From the IMG/VR virus record IMGVR_UViG_3300023184_000045, positions 1-64,000 of that record: 64,000 bases of DNA. One strand, 5' to 3'. Under the pieces are notes generated by a model. The model searched no databases. It was not told where the DNA came from and saw only the letters and a program-made list of their open reading frames with translations. Numbering within the stretch: position 1 is the first letter of the stretch; each line of letters begins with the position of its first letter. The position numbers and the translations under genes are program-made. Source of the stretch: a virus. This document shows positions 6,201 through 60,547 of the stretch, piece by piece.

Positions 6201-8491
6201 CCACCACTCATGCTGCCGGACGTATTCCAACTTGCACTAATGCCGCCCGCTCCGTTATAACCAGCAGTCAATGTAAATGACCTTCCGCTGGATATATGCC
6301 ATAGGTCAATTAAACTGCCGCCTTGGCCAGATGGTGGATAAGCTGTTTGATAGAACCAACATTCGACAGTAAAGTCGCTTGACCCAAGCGCCCAGGCCGA
6401 ACTAGTTGGGTAACTCACGTAACTACTGCCATTGAATAGTAAACTACCTGCTGCGGCAGTGGCAGTAGCAGCAACCGATGGTACTATAGAAGAACTGTAC
6501 GTAATACCACCATTGTTAGTTACTGTAAAGTTATTTAAACTAGAATCTACTATTTTATTAGCGTCGCTGTTAACTAATAATAGTAAAGAAGTGTTAGTAA
6601 TAACAGTTAAAGGCAAGGGCAACGAAAAGGCAGCGGTATATACCGCTGTTCCTTTTACAATTCTAAAATTAGTCATGTAGCCCCCAAAGTAGGCCGTGGC
6701 GCCTGACCCGCTATACTTACCTATAACCGGACCATTTAGAACATAAGTATTTGAATCAGAGTAAGTGGAACCTTCTTGAATACCGTTTAGATACATTTTT
6801 GTAGAGCCGCTGGATTTAACTACAGCCACATGGTACCAAATACCAGTTGAAAGTGTAGTAGTCCCTGTTATTGTATTTGTGTTTGCTACGTTATACACTA
6901 AATTAGTTGATACCAGTATCATTGGACCTGCATTAAGAGTAATACCATTCCTCATATCAATGATAACACTACCTGAGGTAGAATTTAAATAAAACCAAGT
7001 TTCTATGGTCCAGTCGCCTGTGTCAAATTGAAATGCTGCATTACTAGGAATACTAAGATATTGGCTAGTACCATCAAATAACAAACTGCCAGCAGCAAAT
7101 GTGCTTACTGCATTTCCACCACTGCTGCCGCCAAGGCCGCCGGCAGATCCGGCTGCTCCGGCAGTTCCATAGCCGCCCCAAACACTACTAGGTTGTAAAC
7201 CAGTGCCGCCAATACCACTAACTGCACTAGATGTAAATCCACCACCCCCGCCCGACCCGCCAGCTGTACCCGAGGATCCAGTTAATGCGCTACCGCCTGC
7301 GCCACCGCCAATGGCAACCAAGTCATTAACACCAAACAAAGTAAAACTAACAACTGACGTGTTGCCGCCATTGGATCCAATACTGCCGCCGGTACCAACA
7401 GTGACTGCACAATTTGCTGCTGTATACGATAACAGTGAAGCGGATCCTAGTATAACCCCGCCGCCGCCTCCAGTTCCAGGTTGTGGTGCTGAACTGGACC
7501 CGCCGCTGCCTGCGCCACCGCCGCCAGCCACTACCAAATAATATAGATAAGCATCTGGTTTAAAAGTTAATGTATAAAATTTACTAATACTAATACCCAT
7601 TGACGAGGATGCTGTAACAGTAATAGTATATGCACCGGAATTTGACGCAAATTGTTGTTGGGTATATGAAAGGACACCAGTTGATGCATCTATTGCTAAT
7701 CCGCTGGGTCCAGTGTCAATAAAATAAGTTACAGTACCGCCATTGGAATCTTGGGCAGCAAACGTTTCAATTGTGGTGTAAGTACTATTAATAATAGTAT
7801 CGCTATCGCCGCCTGCTATCCAGTTCATATTAGCGCCACCTACACCGCCTGCAGCATACAATATGGTTGGCGTTGATGCCGATGAATCAAGGAAATAAGT
7901 TGCGCTGCCATTGTTACCAGCTATGTTACCCGGACTACCGCCTGCGCCAACAACAATAGTATAGTCACTTCCTGGCGTTACAAGATATAAATTATAGTAG
8001 TCAAGTAGGCCGCCATTGCCACCAGACCCGCCAGTGGCTTTTTGTTGCCCACCTCCACCTCCGCCAATGCCCGCCATGCTAACGGATGTTACTCCAGCTG
8101 GGCAAGTCCAGGTATAGGTGCCAGGTGAGGTATATGCTACGGTTGCATACGAGCTAACATTTGCAACAATATTACCATATGCAACGTTTAGTCCACTATC
8201 AAATAATGTAGTTGCACTCAAACTAGTAGTATTAGCCGACGATGTTGTAACAGTGGCAGATGCAACAGCAAATATTTGACCAATTTGATCAGGTGCGTAG
8301 CCGGTGGTTTTAATTGTATTAACCAGCGCTGGTGTAGTTTGCAATCCCACATTGCTAGTTGTGTTAACAACAGTTTCTCCGGGTGTTACGGTACCTACTG
8401 TAGTTTTAACCAGCGAAGAATCTTCTTCAACAGTAACTATCGTCGTTAGACGATTAACAACTAGATCAAGACTGGGTAGTATAGCAGACAC
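3218..8491 (-). CDS. 1757-aa virion protein: Thr/Val-rich N-terminus, 4 glycine-rich domains, an Ig-like module and 3 LamG domains
   Basis: GTG start preceded by GAGGA. Motifs YLVVAGGGG...GVVIIRY...YKWITSGTITF; GLAIDASTGVLS...YTITVTA (Ig-like); WTIETWFY, FTVECWFY, FTLETWLY. Confidence 0.9.
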   Translation of the reverse strand: MSAILPSLDLVVNRLTTIVTVEEDSSLVKTTVGTVTPGETVVNTTSNVGLQTTPALVNTIKTTGYAPDQIGQIFAVASATVTTSSANTTSLSATTLFDSGLNVAYGNIVANVSSYATVAYTSPGTYTWTCPAGVTSVSMAGIGGGGGGQQKATGGSGGNGGLLDYYNLYLVTPGSDYTIVVGAGGSPGNIAGNNGSATYFLDSSASTPTILYAAGGVGGANMNWIAGGDSDTIINSTYTTIETFAAQDSNGGTVTYFIDTGPSGLAIDASTGVLSYTQQQFASNSGAYTITVTASSSMGISISKFYTLTFKPDAYLYYLVVAGGGGAGSGGSSSAPQPGTGGGGGVILGSASLLSYTAANCAVTVGTGGSIGSNGGNTSVVSFTLFGVNDLVAIGGGAGGSALTGSSGTAGGSGGGGGFTSSAVSGIGGTGLQPSSVWGGYGTAGAAGSAGGLGGSSGGNAVSTFAAGSLLFDGTSQYLSIPSNAAFQFDTGDWTIETWFYLNSTSGSVIIDMRNGITLNAGPMILVSTNLVYNVANTNTITGTTTLSTGIWYHVAVVKSSGSTKMYLNGIQEGSTYSDSNTYVLNGPVIGKYSGSGATAYFGGYMTNFRIVKGTAVYTAAFSLPLPLTVITNTSLLLLVNSDANKIVDSSLNNFTVTNNGGITYSSSIVPSVAATATAAAGSLLFNGSSYVSYPTSSAWALGSSDFTVECWFYQTAYPPSGQGGSLIDLWHISSGRSFTLTAGYNGAGGISASWNTSGSMSGGTTSLNTWYHAAFVRNSANFYLYLNGQQVATTTAVTITGSSDPLFIGANNDSASPTWFFNGYITNVRIVKSAMYSSGFSPTVPLSLVPNTSLLMLVSNNTNRAVDSSTNNFTPTISGATFSSTVIPNASGSVTTAGGSIYFNGTSATLTIPSNAAFNLTADFTLETWLYYQGSSSPCVIMNNQGGASPTRGWMWVLYTDGRMGLDWSISGNGTVVSGGSYTATVAVTFNAWCHVALVRSGTAYTFYINGAAGGAGTMSGAVNFVGSFAIGYPVNETTGATYFKGYMTNMRVVNGRAVYNSAFTPTLLSVVPNTTLLMLVNSSLTYLTDSSTNNLTVTSVNATYNASVVPTAAGTNGPISVNILGNVIASYSDGGLTSNSSVNYGGGGSRVSYGTAGNAGVAYFWYAGTQRANGGSLVQSVSYGGTNYWLHKFTSSGYFDLTTLGGSLSVDYFIVGGGGGAGYDVGGGGGGGGVVIGTAYALQLATVVTVTIGTGGASDQTATTGGADGQPTSLSIDITGTVTAQGGGGGGSHTGFDTPPTIGHPGGSGGGGGGQYSAAGGASTQSSYPLFGGVGYGYAGGASWNSTWGGGSGGGAGGAGSTGTGGLVAGGAPLISSFSGSSAKYAGGGYGNSDAGAVYATGYDGSNTLQGYYGYGANGTGVPNASTYNGNPGIAIIRYAGLLQLGTGGTVTTSGGYTIHTFTSNGTFVVNSIVIQVEYLVVAGGGGGAWYGGGGGAGGFLTATGYSVNLGTAIPVVVGAGGTYGVGTPTYTLATNGLNSSFNTTIVAYGGGAGQKNTYVGLANSGGSGGGGAPNGSVANNGGYGVYPGSPYISAPRQGYDGAGGGTGNTDYSGGGGGAGGLGGNGNAAGAFNCTVGGVGLSSSITGASMYYAGGGGGGGWIGNGAGGTGGGGQGGTGAATGTNGGDGTPNTGGGGGGAGYNPAHGGTGGSGVVIIRYSDTYNAAAGTTNLAAGYPVVSGGYRIYKWITSGTITF

Positions 8492-14315: not shown

Positions 14316-17300
14316 TTAGGCCTGAGCTTCCGTCCAGGATAAACGTGCAAAAATGTTACCCGATGTGGCACCAATGTTCTGGGCCATGACTGTAACCACG
14401 TCTGGCCCGTCGGGGTAAACACCCACGTTGGCTGCTGCAACACCGCCACCTAGGATACTGGTACCCATGTCGCGAACCAAGGTCAAGTCCTGCTGTGTAG
14501 TGGTATAGCCCGAACCTGTGGTGTTCAAGAAGAAGCCGAACACAGTCTCGCCGCCTGCAATAGTAGTTGCCGAAGTATGGAAAATGTACTGTGCCAAACT
14601 AGATCCGCCTACGCTAGCCCAGTTTGGTGTTGCGCTGCTGACTGTACCGTTAAGCACCAAGGTCATAAGGAACTGACCATTGGAGAAAACGTCCAGCTGT
14701 CGCAAAATCATCTGCATGCGGTTTACCAGTTCACGTATGCCCAACGTTGATCCAGCAACACCGCTACTGACACTAGGTGCAATACGGAAACTCATAACTG
14801 CATTGTTAACACCGTTGTTAACTGCCAGGGTTGTGGTCATACCTCTTGTAAACACGTATGATTTATCATCATCAAATCTACCGTCCATGATAACTGACGT
14901 ACCCCAGTGACTGATGGTACTGGCAAACAAGGGAGCATGTAAGTCGACTGCAATTGGAGCAGTGGCACTATATGTAAATGATTGCGCAGCACCGGCCATG
15001 GGCGAAAATACCAATGACTGCGATCCGGCTGCCATAGGTGCCTGGCTTAATGTCACGCTGGTATTTGGCACAAAGCTGACAACAAATGTGTTGGCAGGGA
15101 CTGCATTAGTAGTTGAAAATACATACTGTCCAATTTGTACACCGGTGGTGCTTACACCGGTTATAACCGGAGTTGCAGTGTTAGTAGTAAATGTTAATGT
15201 GGCACCAGCTTGTGCTCTAGTAACACCAGTTAATGTACTAACTGTGTATTGTCCTGCAATATTTGCAGTACCAACACCAGCAAAATTAACGTATTCATAT
15301 GCTGTTGCATTGCGTATTACTGCAATACCTGCACCACTAGTAGGCCATCCAGCTGGTAATGTGTTTACATAGATTGTTACATCACTGCTACCTAGTGTAG
15401 TACCACCATTGGCCTGTATATTAGCCAGCTGTGTGCTCTTACTAAATGTATTTGATTCGTATCTCGCCGGCAAGTTACCCGAACGCATGTAAGCCTGATA
15501 GTTTACGTTGTTGTTGGGACTCTTGTGACAGTACATAACGTCACCGTTGAGTCCACGGAATCCCCAGCGTATAAAGCCCGCACCGTACCACGAGTAATCC
15601 AAATAGAACATTTGCATTCTGCTAAGATCAAGAGTAAATCCGCTAACACCAGTACCGTCTGCACGATCAATGTTCCATGAACTTTGTGGTACACGATAGT
15701 CAATGGTTTTACTAATAACCGCCGCCGACAAGTTAACAGTACCACGATATGCTGGCTGAATTGTTAGTGCTGCATCACTGGTAATTGTTTCCACTTTATA
15801 GCTCATACCTTTAATAACTACAAAATCCCCAGGTACCAGCTGTTTGCTAAAAATAGGGCTTACACCATTGAGGGTAATACCAGTAACTGTGTTACTACCA
15901 GCATTGATACTGGCCCAACCGTTAATTTGATATGTACTGCTACGGCGTACTGCGTATATGGTCTGTCCGTCATATTCAAAAAACACACCGTTTTGATTAT
16001 CGAACATGCCTACGCGAGTATTGGCTCCATACCAATTGCTAACACTCAAATACGGCAAACCAGTAGGTGTTGCAATCGTCGGAATCGATCCAGTGGTATC
16101 TAATCTGTTGGTACTGATGTAGGTAAACTTGTAAGGATCAATTACGCTTGCAACCGTGTATGTACCATTATAAGCTGTTTGATCCAGTCCACTTATTATA
16201 ATAGTGATACCAGGATTGATATTGTGTTGCACCTTGGTAACTACTGTAATCACAGCACCAACTGCTGTGATTGAATCCAAATTCAAATTGGGTTTGAGCA
16301 AAGTACCAGTTGACATCTGGATACCTTTGCCTGATTGGTAGCGGAAATAACGTCGTGTTTGACGTATCAACTGTTGATTATGACTTGATGCATTGGTACT
16401 AAACGTAACACCGCCGTCAAAGGCGCGATGTAAAAAGTTACCCTGTGGGCGAACATATAGTGTGGCACTACCATATGCAATTGTACCGGTTGGCGTGCTA
16501 ATCACGTTGTAGGTAAACACCGTCGGGCTAGTAACTGTGGCACTGTCCACGATCCGTTTGGAGCATTGGTGCTGGCTGTTAAACCAATGATACCAATTTC
16601 ATTGCCCAGTAACAGTCCGTGCGGTACGCTACATGTAACAGTAACCACTGTACCACTGTAGGTCACTGTGCTAAGACTGATGCTGGCGCCAGTAAATACA
16701 TATCCTTGATAGATGTTGGTGGTATTGGCGTTGTTAATTGATCCAGTAGTGCCCGGATAGGCAATTCTGGCCGTATAGGTAAAGTTACTACCGCTGCTGG
16801 TTTCAATCATGAACAAGCCATCTGCACCGGCCCAGGTAGTATCTTGTATGAATACTGGAGTACCAACACCGGGGTTAGCGGTTGAGGTTACTGTAACAGT
16901 ACGACTCAAGTTGACAGCACTGACGTCACTGTATACCAGTGGGTTGTAGGTGTTGTAGTAGGCAAATGGACGATTGTTAATCAGTGCTATACTTTCCCAT
17001 TTGGTAGTCTGTGTACTATATTCAAAGTCAGTATCAATAAGTGCCTGTGGGCTACTGGTACGCAATTTATTAACCGGATCCATTAAAATTTCCATTGGTT
17101 GGAAAGTTTCGTTGGATTCCTCAACCAAGATAGCAATCTTATCAGTACTTTGCATAACACTGGTGGTGTCATACTTCAATACAATACTGGTAGTCGGTAC
17201 GTTATTAGTTATTATGCTAACAAAACTTACCAATGTATAAGTAGGGTCACTGAAGTTGAACAACACAGTATTTCTGGTGGTGTTAGTGATCAAAAGCAGT

Positions 17301-17386
17301 TGCTCTTGACGCAGGTAACGGTTGATCACGATAGTCTTGGTAGACGGGGTGAACGTGTAATATTCTGGTGTTATATGTTTTGCCAT
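14316..17386 (-). pseudogene. One ~1023-codon virion structural gene (T4-like/cyanomyovirus type) split by a -1 frameshift at ~16541 into the 294-aa and 744-aa ORFs; a real lesion or an assembly error
   Basis: Minus strand reads TGG ACA GTG CCA CAG; adding one G gives TGG ACA GTG GCC ACA GTT ACT AGC CCG = WTVATVTSP, joining both ORFs. Family motifs on both sides: YTFTPSTKTI..LLLITN, KLRTSSPQALIDTDFEY, RSGNLPARYE, SHWGTSVIMDGRFDDDK, RELVNRMQ. Confidence 0.75.
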
Positions 17387-17804: not shown

Positions 17805-20800
17805 TCAAGAAACTATCTTGCTAGGAGGAGTAAATGCACTGGTGTATCTGGCCACACTCTTGGTCACACGTAAATCATCAATGTAACCGTTAAAATAGTT
17901 GGATATTGTTGCACCGCCGCTGTAGCCGGCTCCGATATTCACTATGCTTGCACTTATATATGCGGTAGTATCAGCCCATGGGGTTCCGGCTACTACACCA
18001 TTTATATACATGGTAGTGGTATTAACATAACGAACTAGAGCAATATGATACCATGTATTAATAGCAATTGCGCTGGCTGCACTGGTAATCCTGTCTGCTG
18101 TACTGACATAATATCTAACAGTTCCGTCACTGCTTAAATAGATAAGATGATACGCCCCGTTAGTTGATGCCGGTCTGGTGTCAAATAACTGTGCAGTTGT
18201 ACCCGGTAGTGCTGCGGCACGCATCCAAAATTCGATAGTAAAATCGGCTGAAGCACCAAAAATAAACTTGATGTCTGAATATGGAGAAAACACCGTTAGA
18301 TAATTAGTAGTTCCATTAAAATAAACAGATCCTGTGCCATACTTGTAAACGGAATTAACTACCTGCACTGCACCTGCTACACTCCTAATCAGACTTCTTG
18401 ATGTTGAATCATTGATAGCAGAATTTATTGTACTACCAAGTAATAAAGAAGTACCTTTTATTGCAGTTAACAGCCCAGTTGGCGGCGTAAATGCACTAGT
18501 GTACAGTGCAATTCCGTTAACTAGTCGAATATTGCTAATTGTGCCACTAAGGAATAGTGTATTACTGCCAGTTTGACGACCAATGCTGCCACCAGTGGTA
18601 GTTCCGGCAACGCCAAGACCGTCGGCTATTGTGCCCTGAGCATAGACTGCTCCGTTAACATATATTGTTGTCTGGTTTGTACCGGTTCCAGCTCTAACCA
18701 CTGCAACGTGATAAAGTTGACTTGGTAGCAATGCCGTGGTCCCAGTTATATAAAAAGTAGTACTAACGCCAGTGGCATAACCAAATTGTAAAAGTCCGGT
18801 TGCACTAAATCCCAGCTGCCATTGCCCAGTCTGGAACGCTGCCGCGATACCAATAAAGTTGTCAACTAACTTGGGTTGTGCTGTTAATGCACCAAGAGAG
18901 TTAAACCAGCATTCTAATGTAAAATTGGCTGTCCCTATTATCAATGAGTTAGCTGGTAAGGTCAAGTAATCTGTAGTACCATTAAATGCCAGGGCTCCAC
19001 CATACGTTGAATTTGACCAACTGCCAGCAGGAGGATATGGTGAAAAGTTTTCAAGACTAGGAAGGCCAGTTCTGGTTAATGTTCTAGCGTAAACTGATCT
19101 GTCAACTGCATAGCTATCTTTAAATAGTAACAAACTAGTACCAGCCGCAAACGGACTTGCTGTTGATACAGTAGCTGCGTTATTAGTTATAGTGTAGGCA
19201 TTGATGCTGGCATCTGCAATATTGGCAGACTGAGCGGCCAACAAATTAGTAATGCCAGTGCCAAACGGATTAACCAGTGGTGTAACAACCGGTAGTCCGT
19301 TGCCAGGCGATAAAGTAAAAGCATAAGGCCCAGCGTCAATTGGAGTACTAGATCTTGCTACAAACAAATTAGTATAACCAAACGGAACGGTAATACCACC
19401 ACTGGTGTACACAGGATTACCAGTGGTGGTTATTTCAACAGCATTAGTACTATTATCAATTGCTGCGTCCGATTGTGCGGTTAAAAATACAGTATTAGCA
19501 ACAGCAGTCAAGGATGTTGTTGACGGTAGGAAATTAACGGTTGTATATAATGCAGTACCACTTAGAATTCTAAGATTGCTTATATAACCAACAAACGGCC
19601 ACGGATTAGAATCTGCGTATCTACTACCCAATCGAACAGTATCAGACAAGTTAGAAAATGTAGCTGCCAATGAGCTGATAAACGTACCATTGACAAAGGC
19701 AAATAGTCTATTAGATCGCATTGTTAGTGCAATATGAGCCCAGGTGCTAGTTGGCAATGTCCATGGTATAAAATTCAGGCCTGCGCTGTTTGCATTAGCA
19801 ATCCCAGCGCCGTCGCGTGCCAGTATAAACCCTGGTGTGGTTTGAGTTGTGCTAGTTACAATACCTGCCAGACTGTTGGATGTAGGGCCAATCCATACCC
19901 AACACTCAATGGTAAAATCGCCAGTACCTATTATGAAGTTATTACTAGTAGCAGTTAGGTAACTGCTATCATTCAAGTATACGCTGTAAGGAGTAGTAGA
20001 TTGAGTTATAGCCGTTAGTCCGCTAGTAGGAACCACAAAACTAATCGATCGATATAGTGCTGCACTTTTTGTTATTCGAAGATTTGTCAAATAACCTACC
20101 CACGACGATGTAGTTGTTGCACTCCGTGATCCAATTACAGTTGACCCAGCGGAATAGTCAGCAGTGTCAGTGGCACTTGCACCAGCTTGACCATTGATGT
20201 ATACGGTTGTTGCACTGCTAGATCTTACCACAGCCACATGCGCCCATGTATTAATTGCTATAGTAGTAGGAGTGGTAATTAATAGTGTGTTGTTAACCGA
20301 GTAAAATATCACGGTGCCAGTGCTGTTATTAACACCAATTTGATATGTGCCAGCACCTACTCCAGTTCCAACAAAATAAGTTGGCCCAGTGGTTGTAGTA
20401 TAATATACCCATGCTTCAATGGTGAAATCGCCTGTTCCTAAACGCAATGCTACATTGTCAGGTGTAGTCAGATACGATCCTGCCGACGAAAGGACCGACA
20501 CTGGATATTCTGCGTTGTATGCAACAGGGCCGCCGTCATTGGTTAAAGTTAAATTGTAGCCGCCCGAGTCGGTTATATATCCTGCAGACCCTGTTACATT
20601 TAATAACAACGATGTATAACTTGCGGCCGGTATTGCCCGAGTATTGATCCCTCCAATGGGATTTGCTATTTGCGTTGATCTTAGTATATAATTTGGTGTA
20701 GTAAAACTAGCACCGGAGTATACGGCAAGCCCCTTGACTACCCTTAAATTAAACACATAGCCAGTGAATGCAGAATTTGCATTGCCTGATTGATCATCAC

Positions 20801-23800
20801 CAATGGTAATAAAAAGATTATTGCCAATGGTACCCAATTGATTAGCAGTTCCTGTGTTATTTAAAACACCGTTATAATACCATCTTGGTATAGTTGATTC
20901 TACTACCACAGCAACGTGTGTCCATTGATTCAGTGATATTGCCGACCCTGCATAAAATTGAACACCACCATTGGTACCATAGAATCCCATGTAATTGGGT
21001 GTTGCTGGATAAGTGGCGCTACCAAACAATCCAAATATCCAGTCTGCACTAGAGCCTGAGAAATGCCCGCCAATTATTTGTCCAAGGTTACTAGGACTTA
21101 CAGTTGGATATATCCAACATTCTACCGTGAAATCCCCTGTTCCAAATGCAAATATTGCATTTGGAGAGGTTGAAAGTTTAGTTCCAGCTGCGCCATTAAA
21201 ATATAAACTACCTGTGTCTGGGAAGACATCTACAATTTTAATAAAGTTAAGACTATAATTAGTTGGAACAGTAGAAATTGCTGCGGTTGCAGGAGTAAAG
21301 TTTGCTGTGTACAAGGCCTGACCATTTGTCACACGCAAATTAGATATATGCCCAGTGAATTTGCCAGCGCCCTGACCACCAATAACAGCAGTAGTAGCAA
21401 TGGTTCCCCATGTTCCAGTTTGTGCTATGCTACCAACTCTATTACCTGCTAAGTATATAGTTACTGTGTTTGAACTATTTACAAATGCCAGGTGTGTCCA
21501 AGTGCTCAAACTTGGTGTTGTTGCTATTACAGTTTGATAACTAAGTCCATTCCTTGCTGCTACAATATAACCAGTACTGGTAATACCCCAAGTTTGATAG
21601 CTGGTAACACCTGCATTACCAGTAATAATATTTCTAGAAGTTGCATACGTGATACCAGTAGCAGCAGTAGTCAGATACACCCAAGCTTCAACCGTATAAT
21701 CACTAGTCAATGTTGGTATCGCTGTTGACGAATAAACAAGTAAATTTGCTGTAGTACCATTGAACAATACGCTATATGTACCAGTACCTGCTACGGTGGT
21801 TAACTGTGTAATTGGTTGAACAGTTGTTTGTATACCTTTATCAATTTGCAAGTTAGATATGTATCCCGAGAAGTATGCAGTACCAGCCGGGTTTCTACCA
21901 ATGTTTAATGTATTAGTCGGTGCTGCGGTTGTATAGGCAAACGATGTATTGCTACTTGATCCTGAGCTGACATTATTAATATAAAAACCAATAGTTTTTG
22001 TACTGGCAGTAAAAGTAATTGCTATATAATTCCATTGGTTCAATTGCACCACTGGGTTAGAATTAAATGCTGGGTTAGTAAGCGTGCTGCCAGTGGCATT
22101 AAAAAATACCACAGATACACTGCTAGTCAAACCGCCATAGGTTGTATTGTTAAGTTCGATGCTCATTCCAGTTTGCCCAGCCACATTGGTAGTGGCCAGC
22201 GGAACCATTAGTGATGAGCTTCTTGGATACACCCAAAATCTCACAGTCCAATCTTCAATGCCGTTATGTAAAAATGCCCACTCAACGGCTGTACTGACTG
22301 TGTAGTAGTCTGCGGATCCATTGAATTGATAACTCCAACCAGTTAAGAATGAGTTGGTTGACCCTTGTGTTGTAGTACTTGCTCTGGTGACTAAAAAGTT
22401 ATTGAAACTAGTGTCTGAGAAGAAATTGTTGTTGTTTGATACATTGTATTGGCTAGTCAATAGGCTAGTACCAGCGTAGGAACCAAATGGGTTGTTTACA
22501 CTAACACCAGTTACACCATTGTTGGTAATAACAATACTATTCCCGCTGGTGTCCACAATGGTTCTGGACTGAGCTATCAATAAACCAGAACCGCCGACAA
22601 TAGCCCACGACGGAACACCATTTTGATCAGCTGTCTGCGACGATGTCAGTGCTGTGGTAGAGGGCGTAAAGTTAGCGGTGTAAACGGCTACACCTTTGAC
22701 CAATCGCATGTTGCTAATATAACCAGGAAAGTAATAAGTAACACCGCCGCCGTCGAGTGCAAAACCCACTGACAACAATGCAGTCGAAGCTGTAATGCTA
22801 GCAGGAGCCGCAACAGAACTAACCAGCGATCCATTAATATAAACATTGGCATTTGCAGTTGATTTGACCCAGGCCACATGATACCAAGTATTAGAACTAA
22901 TTGCACCGGCTGGCGACGATTGAGATAAATTACCATTCCAATCTACACGCAAGTTGCCATTCATTGTGCGCATCAAGAATGCTCTACCACCTGCTGCGGT
23001 CCACATGCTGACCACAGTGGCATTAGGACGAAAAGTAGTATCTGTTACATACATCCATGTTTCAACAGTAAAGTCGGCTGCGCCAAATGCATAATTAGCA
23101 CTATTTGGTGCAGTTAAGTATTGATTAACACCATTTAAGTATACACTATAATTCTTTACTGTTGGTTGTGTAACAGCTGAGATATTAGTACCAGATTCTT
23201 GCGTTGATGTTAAAGCTGTTGTAGCTGGAGTAAAATTACCAGTGTAGACCGCAGTGCCTAATACCTTACGGAAGTTACTGATATAACCAGTCCAATACAG
23301 GCCTGGTGTAGTGCCTGCTCCGCTGCCAATGGATAGTGGTGCCACATTAGTATGTACATTCCCTGTAACTGTTGTAGTACCTCCTAAATTACCGTTAACC
23401 CAGACCGACCACACATTACCTACTCTAGTAGCAGCTACATGATTCCATGCGCTGGCTTGAATAGATATAACCGAAGTAATACTAACTCCCCAAACAAGAC
23501 CATTCACACTTGCATTAAATACCGGTGCCAGTGTGCTTGAAAATCCCAGCTGGTAACCAGAAAATACTGCTGTTGTTCCACGTTTGGCAACTACTGTTCC
23601 AGTAGGAGCAGTGAGTGCAGTCCATATCCATGCTTCTACGGTAAAATCTAATACACCAACATTAAACTCTGGTGCATCTGCAATGGTAAAATAATCTGTA
23701 GTACCATTGAAATAAGTTGAACCTAACAATGCATCGGTGCCAGACAACGTGCTAGGGCTAGGAAATGCCACTGCGGCTTGAGTAGGTCTAATACTGGCAT

Positions 23801-26800
23801 AGGTATTTGTTAATGCAAAATTGTTCGGAGAGTTGTCAACAAATGTACTATTCTGTAATGTTAATATACTAGTTTGTCCAGCTTCAATTGCTGCTGACGG
23901 TATTCCATTTACGTTAATATCTTGTGTAACTGTTAACGGAACTGTTGATGGTGTAAAGTTGCCAGTGGTAATCACCAGTGTACCTTTTACCATGCGAATA
24001 TTTGTAATGGATCCAACAAATTGCCTACTAGGCCCATTGATCCACGCACCTATATAAGTTTGAAAACTTGAAGACCAATTAACGGATACCGTTGACACTG
24101 CCACTGATCCTATTAGGCCGGCATTTCTATACAGATACATAGTTGTACCTGTACGTATAAGTCGATAATAATACCAATTATTTGCCGCTATGACGCCCGC
24201 AGATTCTGTGATAGTGTACGCAGTAACTCCAGAGTATACAGTTGCAGTCATTGCAGCATTGTTCATTTCCAATACAATACCTTCATCTGCATTGGTAGTA
24301 ATTGTACTGTTTGAAATAGAAAACACACGTTGCAATCCGGTTACGCCGCCAGGATATATCCATAAATCTACTGCAAAGTTGCCGCTGCCAACTTGGAATG
24401 CTGCATTGTTTGCTACCTGTAGATACTGTATAACTTGACTTTGGTCAGTGGTTAATGTGTTAGGAAAACTTCTACCCGGGCCCCATATTATACGAACGGC
24501 GCCGCGGCCACCTTGTCCTGCCAACAGTGTTGGATGGTCACCCGGCTTATAGCCGAAGTTATATCCGCCTCCACCGCCGCCAAAATCCCCGCCAGGTGTT
24601 AATCCTATAGGCGAAGCTCGCAATCCTGTAAGTTCTATACCTGTATAAGGCCAACTATCGCTACCACCACTGTCACCGGTGCCAAATGGTGTTGCCAACC
24701 TATAGATGGCGCCATTGTTGGTTATTGTGTTTGGTGTTGTACTTGAATCGGTTATGTATGCTGCACTGTTTGCAGACAACAATAATAACGATGTTGCACT
24801 TGAACTTGCAATTGGCTGAATGTTAAGTATTGGGTTACCAGTCTGTGTTACAGTCAGTGGTGCAGTAGGTGGTGTGAAGTTACCTGTGTAGACTGCAACA
24901 CCTTTGACTATACGTAAATTAGTTACATAACCATTTTGATATATACTATTATATACACCCATATTGAGAGGGAGTGCAGCACTAGACTGCGGGGTTCCAC
25001 TAATTGCTGTTAGAGTTTGTGCTACTCCGTTTACAAATATTCTAATTCCGCCCGAGGTCTTGGTCATTGCAATGTGAGACCATGCACTAAGAGCTACTGT
25101 ATTTGTAGAAAGCACAGAATTTTGCGTACCATTAAAATAATAAAAACGAATTTGCCCAGTGGCACTACCAATGCCAAATGACCAATAATTAGTCGAAACA
25201 TTATAACCCATATTACCAACAACAGTTGGTCCATTTACGCTGGCGCTAGAATACCAATTGGCATACGACAATGGATATATCCAACATTCTAAAGTATAGT
25301 CAGTGGTCCACCAATCAAATAATGCTGTTGAATATGGTGTTGTTAGATAATTAGAATTATTAAAAAACAGTGCGCCACCCGGTGCGTATTCTGCTGACCC
25401 GCCGGCAGTAAATCCACCTGGATTACTTGAGGCAATTCCACTTGTTCCTTGCCCTAGTACTCCGGTGCCGCCGCCGCCCGATCCTACTATAGTACCATTA
25501 CCAATGCCACCGGCACCGGCGCCGCCAGACCCGGCACTAGCAGGGTCGATTGAGTACGACGAAACACCAAGGCCGCCAGCACCAACATATCCGCCTGCGC
25601 CTCCGCCCCCACCGCTATTAAAGGTAGGGTATATTGTGGCACCTGCGCCGCCTACTCCGCCACCGTCGCCAGCATAAGCACCACCTGCACCACCTGCATT
25701 ATTAATGGCGCCGCCGCCGCCGCCCCCGAACACGGTTGATGAATTTATAAAATAACTAGAGCCGCCAGCGGATGCAGGCACGTTGGTACCTAAATCTTGG
25801 CCACCAACTCCAGCTACAACTGTATAACTTTGTCCGGGCGTTACAGAAATGTTGTTTTTCCATCCCAGGCCACCTCCACCGCCGCCAGTGGCGCCCAGAT
25901 AGGCACTCCCCGACCACCCCTGATTTCCGCCACCACCTGCGCCAATGGCTACAACTGATACACTAGTAACACCAGGTGGGCATACCCAATTGGCATTACT
26001 TGTAAATAACTGTTGATAAACCAAATTAGCAGTTACTAAACTACCACCAGTGTCCAATGGTGTTAATGCGCTATAGGCAATTGGATAAGTTGCAGAGTTT
26101 AATACTGTAAATGCATTTGCACTAGAGTCTGTAATGTAAGTTGTGTCTGATGCTACATTTAACAATAAGGATGTACCAGCAACGTTTGCAGTTAGTGTAG
26201 TTGGCACCGATCCTCCATATAGTACAACGCCGTTGACAAATCTAAAGTTGTGTATATATCCAGTAAAATATTGGCCAATACTACTATTTCCGATAGTTAA
26301 CACGTTATCTGTAAAGTTATTTGTATTGGTTGTACTATTTGTTAGTGTTCCATTTAGCCAACAAGCGTGTACATTTGCGCGGCGGGTATATGCAACGTGC
26401 ATCCATGTATTGGTTGGAATGGTTCCCGCAAAGCCTCCATTTATAGCAGAACCATTATAATTTCGTACGCCTATACCATTGGTGTTGCTAATATACCAAT
26501 GCCATCCAGCATTACTATTACCAATTGTAGTACTAGCAATTGTTTCTGTTGCCCCACCGGGTACCGTAATATATACCCAACATTCTGCTGTAAAATCTCC
26601 TACTCCTGTAGCAAAAGCAGCAGAGTTTGCGGTAGTTACTATTTGGGCAGCACCATTAAAATAGACTGGGTAGTTAAGGCCAGATGTTGGAAAGAATGGA
26701 TTGTTTAAATCTGGACGGGCAGATCCAGCCGTAACAACTGCTAATGCATTTGAACTAGCATCTGCATTATATGGGGGTGCCAAAGTGTCGGCTTGTATTT

Positions 26801-26948
26801 CTAATATAACACTTTTTCTATAAGGATCATTTGTGGTCCATACATCAGTCCCAGTGTATTTGGCAGTGTCGGCCGTAGACCAAACTCCGCCATCTGCTGG
26901 ATATATTGTAGTTGATGTTATTAACCCACCTGGGAATTTTTTTGCCAT
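17805..26948 (-). CDS. 3047-aa giant lectin array: 12 LamG/ConA-like domains and one glycine-rich domain, partly nested
   Basis: Twelve (D/N)(F/Y/W)(T/A)xxxW cores counted, most followed by NLRxxxG.AxY..FTP; N-terminal MAKKFPGG motif. Confidence 0.92.
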   Translation of the reverse strand: MAKKFPGGLITSTTIYPADGGVWSTADTAKYTGTDVWTTNDPYRKSVILEIQADTLAPPYNADASSNALAVVTAGSARPDLNNPFFPTSGLNYPVYFNGAAQIVTTANSAAFATGVGDFTAECWVYITVPGGATETIASTTIGNSNAGWHWYISNTNGIGVRNYNGSAINGGFAGTIPTNTWMHVAYTRRANVHACWLNGTLTNSTTNTNNFTDNVLTIGNSSIGQYFTGYIHNFRFVNGVVLYGGSVPTTLTANVAGTSLLLNVASDTTYITDSSANAFTVLNSATYPIAYSALTPLDTGGSLVTANLVYQQLFTSNANWVCPPGVTSVSVVAIGAGGGGNQGWSGSAYLGATGGGGGGLGWKNNISVTPGQSYTVVAGVGGQDLGTNVPASAGGSSYFINSSTVFGGGGGGAINNAGGAGGAYAGDGGGVGGAGATIYPTFNSGGGGGAGGYVGAGGLGVSSYSIDPASAGSGGAGAGGIGNGTIVGSGGGGTGVLGQGTSGIASSNPGGFTAGGSAEYAPGGALFFNNSNYLTTPYSTALFDWWTTDYTLECWIYPLSYANWYSSASVNGPTVVGNMGYNVSTNYWSFGIGSATGQIRFYYFNGTQNSVLSTNTVALSAWSHIAMTKTSGGIRIFVNGVAQTLTAISGTPQSSAALPLNMGVYNSIYQNGYVTNLRIVKGVAVYTGNFTPPTAPLTVTQTGNPILNIQPIASSSATSLLLLSANSAAYITDSSTTPNTITNNGAIYRLATPFGTGDSGGSDSWPYTGIELTGLRASPIGLTPGGDFGGGGGGYNFGYKPGDHPTLLAGQGGRGAVRIIWGPGRSFPNTLTTDQSQVIQYLQVANNAAFQVGSGNFAVDLWIYPGGVTGLQRVFSISNSTITTNADEGIVLEMNNAAMTATVYSGVTAYTITESAGVIAANNWYYYRLIRTGTTMYLYRNAGLIGSVAVSTVSVNWSSSFQTYIGAWINGPSRQFVGSITNIRMVKGTLVITTGNFTPSTVPLTVTQDINVNGIPSAAIEAGQTSILTLQNSTFVDNSPNNFALTNTYASIRPTQAAVAFPSPSTLSGTDALLGSTYFNGTTDYFTIADAPEFNVGVLDFTVEAWIWTALTAPTGTVVAKRGTTAVFSGYQLGFSSTLAPVFNASVNGLVWGVSITSVISIQASAWNHVAATRVGNVWSVWVNGNLGGTTTVTGNVHTNVAPLSIGSGAGTTPGLYWTGYISNFRKVLGTAVYTGNFTPATTALTSTQESGTNISAVTQPTVKNYSVYLNGVNQYLTAPNSANYAFGAADFTVETWMYVTDTTFRPNATVVSMWTAAGGRAFLMRTMNGNLRVDWNGNLSQSSPAGAISSNTWYHVAWVKSTANANVYINGSLVSSVAAPASITASTALLSVGFALDGGGVTYYFPGYISNMRLVKGVAVYTANFTPSTTALTSSQTADQNGVPSWAIVGGSGLLIAQSRTIVDTSGNSIVITNNGVTGVSVNNPFGSYAGTSLLTSQYNVSNNNNFFSDTSFNNFLVTRASTTTQGSTNSFLTGWSYQFNGSADYYTVSTAVEWAFLHNGIEDWTVRFWVYPRSSSLMVPLATTNVAGQTGMSIELNNTTYGGLTSSVSVVFFNATGSTLTNPAFNSNPVVQLNQWNYIAITFTASTKTIGFYINNVSSGSSSNTSFAYTTAAPTNTLNIGRNPAGTAYFSGYISNLQIDKGIQTTVQPITQLTTVAGTGTYSVLFNGTTANLLVYSSTAIPTLTSDYTVEAWVYLTTAATGITYATSRNIITGNAGVTSYQTWGITSTGYIVAARNGLSYQTVIATTPSLSTWTHLAFVNSSNTVTIYLAGNRVGSIAQTGTWGTIATTAVIGGQGAGKFTGHISNLRVTNGQALYTANFTPATAAISTVPTNYSLNFIKIVDVFPDTGSLYFNGAAGTKLSTSPNAIFAFGTGDFTVECWIYPTVSPSNLGQIIGGHFSGSSADWIFGLFGSATYPATPNYMGFYGTNGGVQFYAGSAISLNQWTHVAVVVESTIPRWYYNGVLNNTGTANQLGTIGNNLFITIGDDQSGNANSAFTGYVFNLRVVKGLAVYSGASFTTPNYILRSTQIANPIGGINTRAIPAASYTSLLLNVTGSAGYITDSGGYNLTLTNDGGPVAYNAEYPVSVLSSAGSYLTTPDNVALRLGTGDFTIEAWVYYTTTTGPTYFVGTGVGAGTYQIGVNNSTGTVIFYSVNNTLLITTPTTIAINTWAHVAVVRSSSATTVYINGQAGASATDTADYSAGSTVIGSRSATTTSSWVGYLTNLRITKSAALYRSISFVVPTSGLTAITQSTTPYSVYLNDSSYLTATSNNFIIGTGDFTIECWVWIGPTSNSLAGIVTSTTQTTPGFILARDGAGIANANSAGLNFIPWTLPTSTWAHIALTMRSNRLFAFVNGTFISSLAATFSNLSDTVRLGSRYADSNPWPFVGYISNLRILSGTALYTTVNFLPSTTSLTAVANTVFLTAQSDAAIDNSTNAVEITTTGNPVYTSGGITVPFGYTNLFVARSSTPIDAGPYAFTLSPGNGLPVVTPLVNPFGTGITNLLAAQSANIADASINAYTITNNAATVSTASPFAAGTSLLLFKDSYAVDRSVYARTLTRTGLPSLENFSPYPPAGSWSNSTYGGALAFNGTTDYLTLPANSLIIGTANFTLECWFNSLGALTAQPKLVDNFIGIAAAFQTGQWQLGFSATGLLQFGYATGVSTTFYITGTTALLPSQLYHVAVVRAGTGTNQTTIYVNGAVYAQGTIADGLGVAGTTTGGSIGRQTGSNTLFLSGTISNIRLVNGIALYTSAFTPPTGLLTAIKGTSLLLGSTINSAINDSTSRSLIRSVAGAVQVVNSVYKYGTGSVYFNGTTNYLTVFSPYSDIKFIFGASADFTIEFWMRAAALPGTTAQLFDTRPASTNGAYHLIYLSSDGTVRYYVSTADRITSAASAIAINTWYHIALVRYVNTTTMYINGVVAGTPWADTTAYISASIVNIGAGYSGGATISNYFNGYIDDLRVTKSVARYTSAFTPPSKIVS

Positions 26949-28380: not shown

Positions 28381-31300
28381 TTATCCTCCGAATACTATTG
28401 TCATTGCAATAGATTTTCCTGCTGAAATTCCGCCCGAGCTGCCAGTGTATCCTGCACCAACGCTGCCTGCATATCCTATGCTGCCAGAGTAACCAGTTTG
28501 ACCTAGATCAAATATTTGGAATACTCCTACCATACTGCCATATGTATAAGACACATAGTACAGTGTAGCAGGTGCATCATATGGTACTGTAAATGTTACT
28601 GTAGCATTTGAACCACCGTTATTAGTTATCCCAGATGAGTAGTAATTGCTGGCTCCAGTAGTGCCAACAGTTTTAATAATAAACCCTTCGGATCCAACAT
28701 TAAAATAGTATGTGTATCCACGGGCTAGTGTTATTGTAGGATTGTTTACTCCGTTGATTACAAAAGCTGATGTAGTTGGTGATGTTACTGTGTAGTTAAC
28801 GCCGCCTGCAATACCTTGACTGCCAGTGTAGCCAATTGCCGTGCTGGCCGATCCGGTGTATCCTGTACCTGTACTACCTGTATAGCCCAAACTTCCAGTG
28901 CTACCTGTATATCCAGTGTCACCCTGGATTGCACCTGGCAATTCTCTAATTTGTATGATTACACCAGAACTAATGGTTCCTACCATGGTCAGTGTTGTGC
29001 CAGTGATTGAGTAGTCAACTGTTGGGCGCTGTACTACACCATTAGCCATTACCAAGGCGCTGTCATTGGTTATGCCATTGCTGACTGTAAATGTATTACC
29101 ACCAGTGGTAGTATACAATCTGGTCAAGAATGGTGTATAAGCTGGCCCAAATACCTGTGTAGTAATTTCAATTTGTGCTGCCAATGGAGGTGCTTCGCTA
29201 AATGTAATAACACTACCTAACAATGAATATGAACTCTTTAGCTGTATAACACCATTTAAGTTTATAGTTGTATTGTTTATGTTTCGAGGAGTAACACTAA
29301 GAGTAAATGCCAGTGTAGATCCATCACCAGTAAAAGTATCAACTATACCAGTGTAACTAAGTTGTCCAACTGACCCAGTATATCCTGCACCGATACTACC
29401 TGTATAACCAGGAGCAGTACTAACCGATCCAACATATCCTATGCTGCCACTGTAGCCAATTGAACCCGAATATCCAAGTGGTCCTATAAATCCAATTGAC
29501 GCGGCTTCAACCCATTGTGTGCTAGATCCGTCGTCTGTATAAGTGAGCAGTACGCCAATTGTTGTGTCAAACCATCTATCACCAGCTGCTGGACTTGTTG
29601 GCGCGGTGTCAGAGAAATAGTAAGCGCCTGCACCTGCTCCACCGCCGCCACCACCAGAGCTGTACGGAGAACCATTGGCCCAAAACACGCCGCCAGTGGT
29701 AACCAGTCGTCCACCAATGTATACGTTACCGGCAACACCGGCACCACCCCCAACTACCAGGGCGCCAGTTGTGCTACTTGTGCTGTCAGTTGGTAATATC
29801 GTTCCACTGGCTAAACCAGTCCAAGAAATTGACCCTGATGTAGTCCATATGTATGTTCTATATCCGCCCGCAACAGTAACAATAGGTGATCCTGTTGTTC
29901 CCGTTGCTGCGTCAAAGCTGTCTGGATATCGTATAACAACAATACCCGATCCACCGTTGTCAACATAGCCAACATATGGAGCCCAGGGATACTGGCCACC
30001 ACCGCCACCACCAGTATTTTGTCCACCACCGCTAATTGTAGCAGCATTATATCCACTGCCCATGGCTCCAGCCGCACCACCAGTTGCGCCACCTTGTCCG
30101 CCGCCTGCGCCGCCTGCGCCAGGTGTTGCGCCCGAACCACCGCCACCGCCTGCCCAATAGTAACTGGTTCCAGTAATTGAATTTGCCGCACCTATACCGC
30201 CGTTGCCACCTGTGGTACCAGATTGATTTCCGCCCGGACCGCCTGCACCACCGCCGCCGCCAGCTGCGCCTACAGCGCCGTCGCTTGAACCGCCTGCGTA
30301 CCCTTGCCCACTGGTTCCTGCACCAGGCGTGCCAACTGCAAGACCAGTGGAATAAGTGCTGCCCGCGCCACCACCTGACCCTCCACTAAGGCCATTCATG
30401 TTTTGATAATAGCCACCACCGCCACCACCACCAATTGCATTTATACCAAATGGTGATGTTGCGTTATATGTTGATATTGCACCATTGTTAACAATGGTAA
30501 ATGCATTGGTAGAATTGTCTACGATAGTAGCATCTTGCAGTGTTAACAAACTGGTTTGTGTACCAGTAATGGCACTGATGTTTGCTCCGCTGCTCTGTGT
30601 AGTAGATAGTTTGCTCGAAGGCGGTGTAAATGCTCCTGTATAGACTGCTACACCTTTGACTACACGGAAATTATTTATGTTTCCAGTCACGTATCCGCTT
30701 GCTAAAACGTCCCCAGTATCACCAATGTACCAATTTGAGCCTACTCCATTTAAATTTATGCCACTTGCATTGTATGGAGTACCAACAATTGTGCCATTCA
30801 CATATAAACTAAGTGTTCCACTATATCGTACCAGTGCTAAATGTACCCAAGTATTGTATACAATTGTACCCCCTTGTATTACTGGGAAAGTACCATTCAT
30901 TGCAACTTGATATGCTGTAATAGTTCCACTAGCGTGTCCTGCAATAAGACTTAGTGCGCCGCTTGTAAAACTATTATAGTTACTAAAAATAACTGGATAC
31001 GATGAAGTTCTGGCAGTTAAGTAACTCCAACACTCTACTGTGAAATCTCCTGTACCAAATTGAAGTGGCGAAGCTGAAGCTATGGTTAGATACTGACTAG
31101 TGCCATTGAAACTGCCTGAATAATTAAGTCTGTCGCTGATGTAGGAAGTACTACCACTGCCGCCTGCTGTGTATGCTGCTGTTGCGCCGATACCGCCAGC
31201 ACCAACGATTACAGCAACATTAGCATCAGTACTTACGCTGTAGCCAGATGCAGCCAAGTATCCGCCACCTCCGCCGCCTGCCTGAGTACCACCTCCGCTG

Positions 31301-34300
31301 CCGCCAGCAACAACCAAATATTCAATGGTAGACGGTGCTAGCCCAGTATAGGTCATTAGTCCACCAACATACAAGTTACCTTTAATGCCAGCACCGCCAC
31401 GTACTTGCAATGCACCTGTTAAGGATGTAGTTGCTACTGTGGTATTCGATATTACAATTTGATTGTTACCATCAAAACTGCTGCTGCCTCCGCCGGTGCC
31501 AGCACTACCTGTGTATCCTATACCAATCGACCCCGCGTAGCCGATTGATCCAGCATAGCCGATTGATCCAGCATAGCCAACTCCGATTGATCCAGTATAG
31601 CCAACTCCAATTGATCCAGTATAACCAACTGACCCGTTGTATCCGTTGCCGCTGCCCCCAGAACTAAATGGTGTTCCGTTGGCCCAGAATATACCATCGG
31701 TAGTAATTAATCTTCCACCAACATATACATTACCAGCAATACCAGCACCACCACTTACTACTAGTGCGCCACTAGTTGTACTTGTGCTTAAACTTAAATC
31801 TGGAGGAGTTGTACCTAAAGTTATTGTCCCGGCACCAGTGAATTTATATATTCTATATCCGCCGGTTGTTGTGTATGTAACTGTTCCAGTGGTCGCCGAT
31901 GCTGCATCATAGGTGTCAGCATATCGAATGATAACAACACCAGATCCGCCGCGGCCTTCAGCACCGTTATTTGTGCCTACGCTACCGCCGCCACCAGTAT
32001 TTGCTACGCCGTTTTGACCAGTGTTATTACCAACTTGAAGAGATCCGTTGCCACCGCCGCCAGTACCACCCATTGCGTAGTAGCTGGCGCCACCACCTGC
32101 ATAATATGTTCCAGAACCAGCTGGCCATTCTTTACCGGCGCCGCCTGCGCCAGGATACCCTGATCCAGCAGCGCCTGCACCGCCGCCGCCAGTGACATAG
32201 TATCCGCTGCTAGAAGCACCACCATCGTTACCATAACCGCCACTGGCGCTAGCTGGTTGTAATCCATAACCGCCACGGTCAGCAACCCTGGATGTTCCAG
32301 CACCCGATCCACCACTATTACCAATGCCATATTGTTGGCCGCCGCCGCCACCTAACGCAGTAATAGTTGATGATCCAGATAATTGTAAAGTTGAATCAAT
32401 ACCGTTAGTGGCAACAGCGCCGCCAGCGCCCACTGAAATGGTCAATGTATAGCCAGGGGAAACAGATGATGTTCCCATTACAAAACCGCCTGCACCACCT
32501 CCGCCGCCGTTACCGTCATTGCCTGTTCCGCCACCACCACCGCCGCCTGCAATCACTAAGTAATCAAATGCCGATGGCGCATTTCCTAAATCGGGTGAGT
32601 ATCCAACACGTAACCCTCTGCCAATGCCGGCACCGCCTGCTACTATTAATGCGCCAGTAGTAGTTGATGTCGACGGCGTAGTGTTGCTGGTTATGATCTG
32701 TTGTGTAGTTGTGCCGCTGAATGTACCAGCTGATCCTGCATAGCCAATTGATCCCGAGTAGCCAATTGATCCTGCATATCCTAATCCTGCCGAACCAGTG
32801 TAACCAGCTGGACCCGAACTGGTAAACGATGCACCATTGGCCCAAAATATACCACCACTGGTAATTAAACTGCCGGTAGTGGTAATATTTCCACTGGCAA
32901 CAATACTGTTGGCATATTCTGTATTGGTTATCGTTTCATAGTTTAATGTAGTAATGTTACCAGTTACTACTAAATTGCCACCAATGTATAAGTCGCCGGA
33001 TACGCCTACTCCGCCAGTGACTACTAATGCGCCTGTGTTAGCACTAGTACTTGGAATTGCACTATAGGATAGTGTGTTGTAGTATTGGCCAGCAGTATCT
33101 GTCAGTACCGTACCGGTGGTTGTTGCATCGTATGTATCTTTATGGTAATAAAGATTAATCTTATAATTAACGCTGCCAGATAAACTTACTGTTTCGGTGT
33201 ATACAACACTATCATTTGTATATAGGTAATTAAATGTTAGTGTTGATCCAGTTTTTCGTACTCGGAATCTAAATGCAATATTACCAACATTGGTGAATGC
33301 ATAATGTATCAAAGGTCGAGCCAGGCCAGCGGATGGATATGCCGTATAGCTGGCCATATCAAGTGCCGCAGTATAAGTGCTTGTGTCGACGTTTAAATAA
33401 CCTATCCCAATTTCGCCTGTGTACATACCAATTCCAGGGAATTCAATTTTAAAATCAAAGTCTGGGCTTGCTGTTGTAAATGTATAGTTAGCAGGATGAT
33501 TGTAACCCGTAGTAGCATTAGTTAACGATATTGAACTTATATACCCAGATGTTACTGCTGTTGCCGATCCAATGTATACATTGCCGTTAATTCCGGCACC
33601 GCCTGCGACTACTAATGCACCTGTTGTAGTGCTAGTTGACGCAGTGGTGTTGCTGGTTATAATCTGCTGTGTAGTTGTCCCACTAAAAGTACCTACTGAT
33701 CCAGCATAGCCAATTGATCCAGTATAACCAATTCCACCAACACTTCCGCTGTAACCGGTTGATCCACTATATCCAACACTTCCGCTGTAACCTGCTGATC
33801 CACTATATCCAATTGGGCCGCTACTAGTAAACGATGTACCATTTGACCAAAATATACCCTGCGTAGTAGGAATTACTAAATTACCGCCAATATATAAATT
33901 GCCTGCTATACCAGCGCCACCACTGACTACTAATGCGCCAGATGTGGTGCTTGTGCTAGTGCTAGTAGCATTGGCTGTACCCGAAGCATTAAAACTAATT
34001 GTCCCGCTGGTTAAGAACGTGTATATTACATAGCTGCCACTTGTAGTTACTGTTGCGTTTGTTGTTGTTGCGGTTGCATAGGTATTAGGATGACGAATAA
34101 TTACAATACCTGAGCCACCAGCACTACCATTACCGCCACCACCTCCGCCGGTATTTGCAGCACCATTTCTTCCCGGACTAGCGCCAGATCCGTTGCCACC
34201 TCCGCCCAGTCCACCAACAGTTGCACCAGTTGAGCCAGCACCGCCGCCTGCATAATACGTAGGAGTTCCAGAAATATTTGTTTGTACGCCGACACCACCA

Positions 34301-51841: not shown

Positions 51842-51844
51842 CGG

Positions 51845-60532: not shown

Positions 60533-60547
60533 CATGCCCTCCAATAT

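Follow-up and report, generated by a model that had tools for sequence, protein, structure and literature searches.

A putative last-in-first-out nest of LamG domains in a 3047-amino acid phage protein

A 64,000-nucleotide stretch of viral DNA (positions 1 to 64,000 of IMG/VR record IMGVR_UViG_3300023184_000045; hereafter, the window) carries an open reading frame (ORF) on the minus strand, at 17805–26948, that encodes a 3047-amino acid (aa) protein with many LamG domains. Based on unit order, comparison with relatives, and structure prediction, residues ~1535–2640 of this protein probably form a four-level nest, in which LamG domains opened one after another along the chain are closed in last-in-first-out order. 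Each domain would consist of a ~170 aa core (C) and a ~38 aa, three-stranded C-terminal closing hairpin (s). The chain would build cores C6, C7, C9, and C10 in succession, with C8 and its hairpin s6 inserted into the first loop of C9, and the returning chain would supply hairpins s7, s8, s9, and s10 to complete C10, C9, C7, and C6, respectively (bracket form: C6[C7[C9a[C8 s6]C9b[C10 s7]s8]s9]s10). The lectin-like domains would form a two-stranded ‘ladder’ or rod, a geometry that we infer, with entry and exit side by side and each rung tied through two chain connections. In such an arrangement, whole sub-nests, or single cores with their hairpins, could enter or leave as balanced blocks between a core and its hairpin while other domains stay intact.

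The 3047-aa protein matches the Laminin_G_3/concanavalin A-like superfamily profile (PF13385) in 12 stretches (567 bits, cut-off 27.6) and contains one Gly_rich_2 domain. Repeats were anchored on conserved motifs, and two hidden Markov models (HMMs) were then built from the protein itself, one for the core (~170 aa) and one for the hairpin segment (~38 aa; pattern TSLL...D.S.N..iT..G....PF). These HMMs found exactly 12 LamG_3 cores and 12 closing hairpins. Together with one Gly-rich domain, which is split, they are arranged along the protein as s C s [Gly-rich] C s C s C C s s C C C s C C s s s s C s C. All features of the gene lie on the minus strand, with residue i at window position 26948-3(i-1).

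Within the proposed nest, C6 (aa 1536–1720; 21789–22343), C7 (aa 1722–1891; 21276–21785), and the main part of C9 (aa 2154–2312; 20013–20489) are each followed by another core with no hairpin between. The hosts are thus interrupted as in nested domain insertion, and their hairpins come only after further complete units. C9 is directly followed by the innermost core, C10 (aa 2317–2481; 19506–20000), after which four hairpins (s7–s10, aa 2486–2639) stand 1–3 residues apart. The first of these, s7 (aa 2486–2524; 19377–19493), provides the closing strands of C10 itself. The next, s8 (aa 2526–2563; 19260–19373), is the first ‘owed’ hairpin and the proposed closer of C9 (level 3), followed by s9 (aa 2567–2600; 19149–19250), the proposed closer of C7 (level 2), and s10 (aa 2604–2639; 19032–19139), the proposed closer of C6, the outermost host; for C6 and C7, this assignment draws on the HMMs and on complex prediction. 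A preliminary description of the window had counted four closing segments after unit 10, one its own and three owed to units 6, 7, and 9, which lack theirs. The HMM layout agrees with this count, and the four segments are found at aa 2487–2502, 2525–2540, 2566–2583, and 2604–2618 (window 19490–19443, 19376–19329, 19253–19200, and 19139–19095). C8 (aa 1909–2089; 20682–21224), closed by s6 (aa 2112–2149; 20502–20615), lies as a guest within the first loop of C9. It cuts off the first C9 strand, NYSLNF (aa 1897–1902; 21260–21243), from the rest of the core, where SAGSYLTTP is located at 20486–20460, and the match of C9 to the core HMM begins only at model position 10.

In ordinary LamG_3 domains, the LLLxF..DSSxN hairpin forms the N-terminal part, and the family consensus starts with s and ends with C. 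The assignment of each hairpin to a core was addressed with an AlphaFold2 (AF2) model of the whole module (aa 1493–2645, 1153 aa), in which s7 is the sole well-modelled hairpin (predicted local distance difference test [pLDDT] 75–84). Complete pentraxins and LamG modules, aligned with VIA-align, fall on model residues 826–1037, which are C10 plus s7 (pLDDT 75–93). For example, serum amyloid P component (SAP, 1sac_A) aligns over residues 4–204 of 204 (Z 16.6, root-mean-square deviation [rmsd] 2.9, 185 residues aligned), the Limulus SAP-like protein 3flp_A over residues 1–217 (Z 18.5), and the PAPP-A LamG domain with Z 19.9. The main part of C9 (model residues 657–816) aligns to CBM40. A competition construct containing one core and two hairpins (s10-C11-s11, aa 2601–2870) was also modelled; C11, s11, and C12 together span aa 2647–3046 (17811–19010). 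Pentraxin-type folds were placed on residues 49–258 of this construct, i.e., C11 plus the first two s11 strands, with s10 left out. A two-sheet, LamG/pentraxin-like jelly roll was found for both C10+s7 (Z 16.6–19.9) and C11+s11 (Z 12–13.8) in the AF2 models. The competition model is weaker (mean pLDDT 61), and the closure of C11 by s11 is held with less confidence than that of C10 by s7. Because whole pentraxin/LamG structures align to a core and the hairpin that follows it, in these models the hairpin closes a pentraxin-like jelly roll at its C-terminal end.

The order of LamG units that are guests in Gly-rich hosts runs the same way, and together with the fold alignments it upholds the reading of these pieces as ‘closing segments’ in the preliminary description. 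Directly before C2, the Gly_rich_2 match breaks off at profile position 210 of 226, and the terminal GxGAVRIIW-type strand of this domain resumes only after s2. The split domain occupies window 24435–25994 (aa 319–838), with profile positions 5–210 before LamG unit 2 and the last strand, GGRGAVRIIWG, after s2. Since the two pieces flank LamG unit 2, this unit is a guest inside the Gly-rich domain. Two neighbouring genes on the minus strand contain LamG guests as well, a single C+s (28381–37488; aa 2122–2347) and CsCsCs (3218–8491; aa 467–1111), and in both no hairpin precedes the first core. Among relatives, P0116 is purely (Cs)9, and the nest CCCsss of P0044 ends at a non-LamG region. An ORF at the window edge (1–3177, minus strand) reads CsCsCsCss, in the same core-then-hairpin phase. 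Mutual-information covariation between the hairpin and its preceding or following core was above shuffles for both and stronger for the preceding core. This measure was confounded and was rejected: the same pairs recur two units away, and joint tables show position-specific orthology classes.

To compare relatives, the HMMs were iterated over 121 homologs (1.7–5.1 kaa) from a protein search, in which multi-hairpin runs come after multi-core runs. Directly matched (core, hairpin) runs were (2,2) in 22 cases, (3,3) in seven, and (4,4) and (8,8) in one each. In a bracket reading of 67 dereplicated proteins, where a core opens and a hairpin closes, 20 of 38 multi-hairpin runs closed all open cores exactly, and one over-closed. 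Shuffling the run order within proteins gave 7.8±2.4 exact closures (maximum 16 in 2000 trials), and the observed 20 was never reached. Across relatives, longer hairpin runs follow larger numbers of unclosed cores, and close orthologs (~70% identity over the region) have kept the four-hairpin run, showing that the layout is more than chance. Examining the homologs for nesting revealed closed nests at depths of 2 to 8: four levels in the 3047-aa protein and its orthologs, five in P0015, six in P0028, and eight in P0016. The last of these is the deepest nest seen (CCCCCCCCssssssss, aa 1507–3327; gene at L001:4610–10087, a contig of Logan SRR27758067), and its gaps are regular (16–18 aa core to core, 3–5 aa hairpin to hairpin). 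Across nests, linkers measure ~16–18 aa between cores, 4–5 aa between the final core and the hairpin after it, and 3–6 aa between hairpins (1–6 aa with s7–s10 counted in). Given these short linkers, the first hairpin must sit on the last core and each next hairpin beside the previous one.

The nested form occurs in contigs of uncultured phages. When deposited phage genomes were searched with C10 and the four hairpins behind it, no record covered at least 80% of the query, and the matches ended after the first hairpin. Syn1 and S-H9-1, the cultured cyanophage relatives checked, contain no hairpin runs, only CsC..C. The conserved C-terminal ‘CC’ junction in this family contains a 40–50 aa gap that is not matched by the hairpin HMM (e.g., L003 aa 2388–2433, L004 2328–2377, L005 2082–2126). 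This gap probably hides a divergent hairpin, in which case ordinary family members also have as many cores as hairpins. It is a far-reaching and unlikely extension that bracket closure is a rule for the whole family, with every core ‘owed’ one hairpin. The N-terminal hairpin s0 (aa 46–86; 26691–26813), which has no preceding core, and C12, which ends the protein with no hairpin after it, might then pair within or between chains, making the 3047-aa protein one giant closed bracket or a self-assembling donor-strand chain. On this view, the eight levels of P0016 would exceed every known recursive domain insertion in depth and offer a natural means of studying the order of very long-range folding.

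Insertions and deletions (indels) among orthologs provide a further line of evidence. Upstream of the four-level nest, where the 3047-aa protein has CCss (a two-level nest, C4[C5 s4]s5; aa 1073–1534; 22347–23732), the orthologs P0002–P0005 have CCCCsCssss. C4, C5, s4, and s5 match the outer pair of cores and the final pair of hairpins in the orthologs (78%, 81%, 83%, and 78% identity, respectively); therefore, what the orthologs have in addition is a single balanced block, CCsCss, contiguous and placed between C5 and s4, the hairpin of C5. P0005 is without exactly C8 and s6, and its NYSLNF strand is continuous with the rest of C9, which confirms that C8+s6 is a guest in the first loop of C9, as expected if unit 8 sits inside the first strand of unit 9. 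In this ortholog, s8 is degenerate yet present. A different lineage offers a third case: C[Cs]s in P0057 corresponds to Cs in P0071, and the outer hairpin is an 86%-identical ortholog. Guests were thus gained or lost as self-contained units in three indels (CCsCss, C8+s6, and Cs), each of which is what an intramolecular last-in-first-out nest would predict. Only these three hand-checked indels were used; automated unit-level indel calling over all protein pairs was rejected, its output being mostly single ‘s’ or ‘C’ events that represent HMM misses.

Conservation differs among the units of these orthologs. The guest core C8 is only 25–37% identical to its counterpart, whereas identity elsewhere is 70–90%, suggesting that the inserted C8 evolves much faster or was replaced. 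The best-conserved units are s0 (88–91%) and C12 (17811–18338; 89–90%), compared with 63–86% for the others. An origin of the hairpin run by recent tandem duplication was rejected: s7–s10 differ strongly, and each is 65–80% identical to its own ortholog.

Long-range docking was examined by complex prediction with s9-s10 and C6-C7 as separate chains, using alignments (A7 and A8) deepened with pieces cut from related loci. The complex gave weak support (interaction prediction score from aligned errors [ipSAE] 0.38; best control 0.00), with contact agreement of at least 91% among runs. The partner reached pLDDT 75–78, compared with 25 when an unrelated protein took the place of C6-C7. In calibration, 58 of 80 solved complexes attained the mark, as did 2 of 110 mismatched pairs, and at ≤0.60 it was reached by only seven of those 80 complexes and by both mismatches; these counts hold only roughly here because our own alignments were used. 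Since any hairpin may fit any vacant core, this result bears on complementation and not on which hairpin goes where.

Several observations weigh against the proposed nest. In the 1153-aa AF2 model (mean pLDDT 59), s8–s10 are disordered (pLDDT ~30), and s5, half of C6, and half of C7 were fused into one chimeric domain. Alignment depth was only 4–17 rows at C6/C7 and s8–s10 (5–8 rows for s8–s10); the poor alignment is the reason why C6 and C7 were mis-built, and probably also why s8–s10 are disordered. With its shallow alignment, chimeric domain, and disordered hairpins, this model was regarded as uninformative on long-range pairings. The chimera took s5 as its N-terminal strands, which indicates that the hairpin site can be filled from either side. 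In the competition model, s11 past its first strand has pLDDT ~35, while s10 has 55–70, and the score of the s9-s10/C6-C7 complex lies only in the weak band. Many cores of relatives are apparently hairpin-less in the HMM parse (e.g., 135 ‘CCsC’ cases), even though some 40–50 aa gaps after such cores probably hide divergent hairpins. Hairpin and core numbers are equal (12/12 here, 15/15 in both P0003 and P0004), with a hairpin first and a core last, an order that also fits a simple opening phase, (sC)n. The four-deep nesting of the preliminary description (6 contains 7, which contains 9, which contains 10) is partly supported: its bracket logic is backed by fold alignments, guest order, counts, indels, and the weakly supported complex, and the pairings s8–C9, s9–C7, and s10–C6 with their last-in-first-out order are deduced from linker lengths and indels.

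If each hairpin instead belonged to the following core, s5 would open C6, s10 would open C11, and s11 would open C12. Only s7–s9 would then be displaced, giving a three-deep nest (C7 contains C8 or C9, which contains C10) of circularly permuted units. Such a phase is in line with the family consensus, with the equal counts, which leave no orphan, with the AF2 placement of s5 in front of its (chimeric) core, and with the pLDDT of 55–70 for s10 beside C11. We consider it unlikely, because the pentraxin alignments take in C10+s7 and C11+s11 without s10, and the Gly-rich domain and LamG unit 2 would become crossing, non-nested pieces. The single and triple guests of the neighbouring genes, running C-then-s with no hairpin before the first core, also argue against it, as do the all-Cs array of P0116, the CCCsss end of P0044 before a non-LamG region, and, with weak support, the docking of s9-s10 on C6-C7.

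Two further readings concern whether and where the owed hairpins are used. The hairpin-less cores could be complete, with the four hairpins forming a small beta module of their own or a flexible spacer and the matching counts a by-product of repeat duplication, as the disorder of s8–s10 in the first AF2 model and the many cores of relatives with no detectable hairpin would allow. This appears quite improbable given count matching that far exceeds shuffles and indels that are balanced blocks between a core and its hairpin. In addition, the hairpin supplies the last pentraxin-fold strands in the models, so that a core without it misses part of the sandwich; s9-s10 reach their high pLDDT only with C6-C7 present, and the hairpin run, left to itself, stayed unfolded in AF2. 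If the owed hairpins do complement cores, they might close those of a neighbouring chain in an oligomeric fibre, or pair in crossing order. Fibres of phages are mostly oligomeric, the shared ancestry of all hairpins and of all cores would let any hairpin fill any vacant site, and the orphan s0 and unclosed C12 hint at inter-chain or end-to-end pairing. We nonetheless judge this very improbable: linkers of 1–6 aa between hairpins, and of 4–5 aa between the last core and the first hairpin, speak for adjacent, nested pairing, balanced contiguous indels are expected from an intramolecular nest, and our analysis gave no sign of oligomerisation of the 3047-aa protein. The last-in-first-out nest is thus the reading that we prefer.

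The gene is located in a tailed-phage structural gene block. Its neighbours match PHROG virion structural and tail-fibre families, as well as collagen-like and Gly-rich fibre proteins, and the structural protein next to it shares 47% identity with structural proteins of Synechococcus myoviruses (Kyanoviridae). The closest named homolog of the 3047-aa protein comes from an uncultured Caudovirales phage, and the phage that carries the gene appears to be a relative of the T4-like cyanophages. Most likely, the array serves as a multivalent glycan-binding virion appendage, with glycan binding suggested by the superfamily alone. Two adjacent minus-strand ORFs (16502–17386 and 14316–16550; 294 and 744 aa) match consecutive parts of the PHROG virion structural family phrog_5838 (profile 2–296 and 294–705, respectively) and overlap by 49 bases; the pair is, to judge from these matches, a split or frameshifted structural gene. 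The G+C content is 0.34–0.36 in window 48000–60000, compared with 0.41–0.48 elsewhere, and this region covers a 2899-aa ORF (51845–60544) that also contains LamG units.

Nested domain insertion is already known, but cases in which one fold recurs deeply within itself are rare. The nests described here can be read from sequence as matched brackets, recur with two to eight levels in many proteins of uncultured phages, and evolve by gain and loss of balanced blocks. If the proposed nest is correct, it would represent a new architectural principle of phage fibres, in which lectin domains make up a doubly connected rod with its ends together. It would also be a natural model of folding at extreme contact order, the outer domain waiting ~900 residues for its last strands. 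Furthermore, annotation and structure prediction would call for caution, as tandem-repeat domain callers and shallow alignments mis-assemble such regions; a chimeric AF2 domain arose here.

A literature search for nested LamG domains in phage proteins found no description. The nearest architectural analogue is Si3 of the cyanobacterial RNA polymerase beta' subunit, in which sandwich-barrel hybrid motif (SBHM) domains 2–5 are built from distant parts of a chain that folds back on itself (PMC10895346). In a 2026 survey of ECOD domains, Si3 is the extreme case, with up to six nested levels (PMC13114784). In both systems, many copies of one small beta fold depart from a simple tandem array, with several domains drawn from distant stretches of the chain and an elongated, rod-like shape overall; for the phage protein, these last two features are predicted. 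They differ in fold, the phage protein being a LamG/pentraxin jelly roll and not SBHM, and in setting, Si3 being a loop of a cellular enzyme and the nest part of a phage virion protein. The phage domains are always split at one place, before the stereotyped 38-aa closing hairpin; this constant split site makes the nest readable from sequence as brackets. Relatives of the phage protein reach eight levels, compared with six in Si3, whereas the nesting of Si3 has been experimentally solved and that of the phage protein is predicted from sequence and models.

Compared with pentraxins and LamG domains (SAP 1sac, Limulus 3flp, PTX3, and PAPP-A LamG), the whole fold, including the C-terminal strands, corresponds to a core plus the following hairpin (Z 16.6–19.9, rmsd 2.7–3.9, 183–198 residues aligned, identity only 11–18%). 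These known domains are continuous, whereas the last strands in the phage protein would lie up to ~900 residues downstream. Tandem Laminin_G_3 arrays in phage virion proteins (e.g., Kyanoviridae) share the Pfam family and the alternating core-hairpin repeat, and differ in that the cultured Syn1 and S-H9-1 have no hairpin runs. Circular permutation in the concanavalin A-like fold moves one piece within a single domain. It resembles the phage arrangement in that one and the same strand pair may come from either the N- or the C-terminal side of the core, and AF2 models show both; in the proposed nest, however, the hairpin is parted from its core by whole further domains, recursively.

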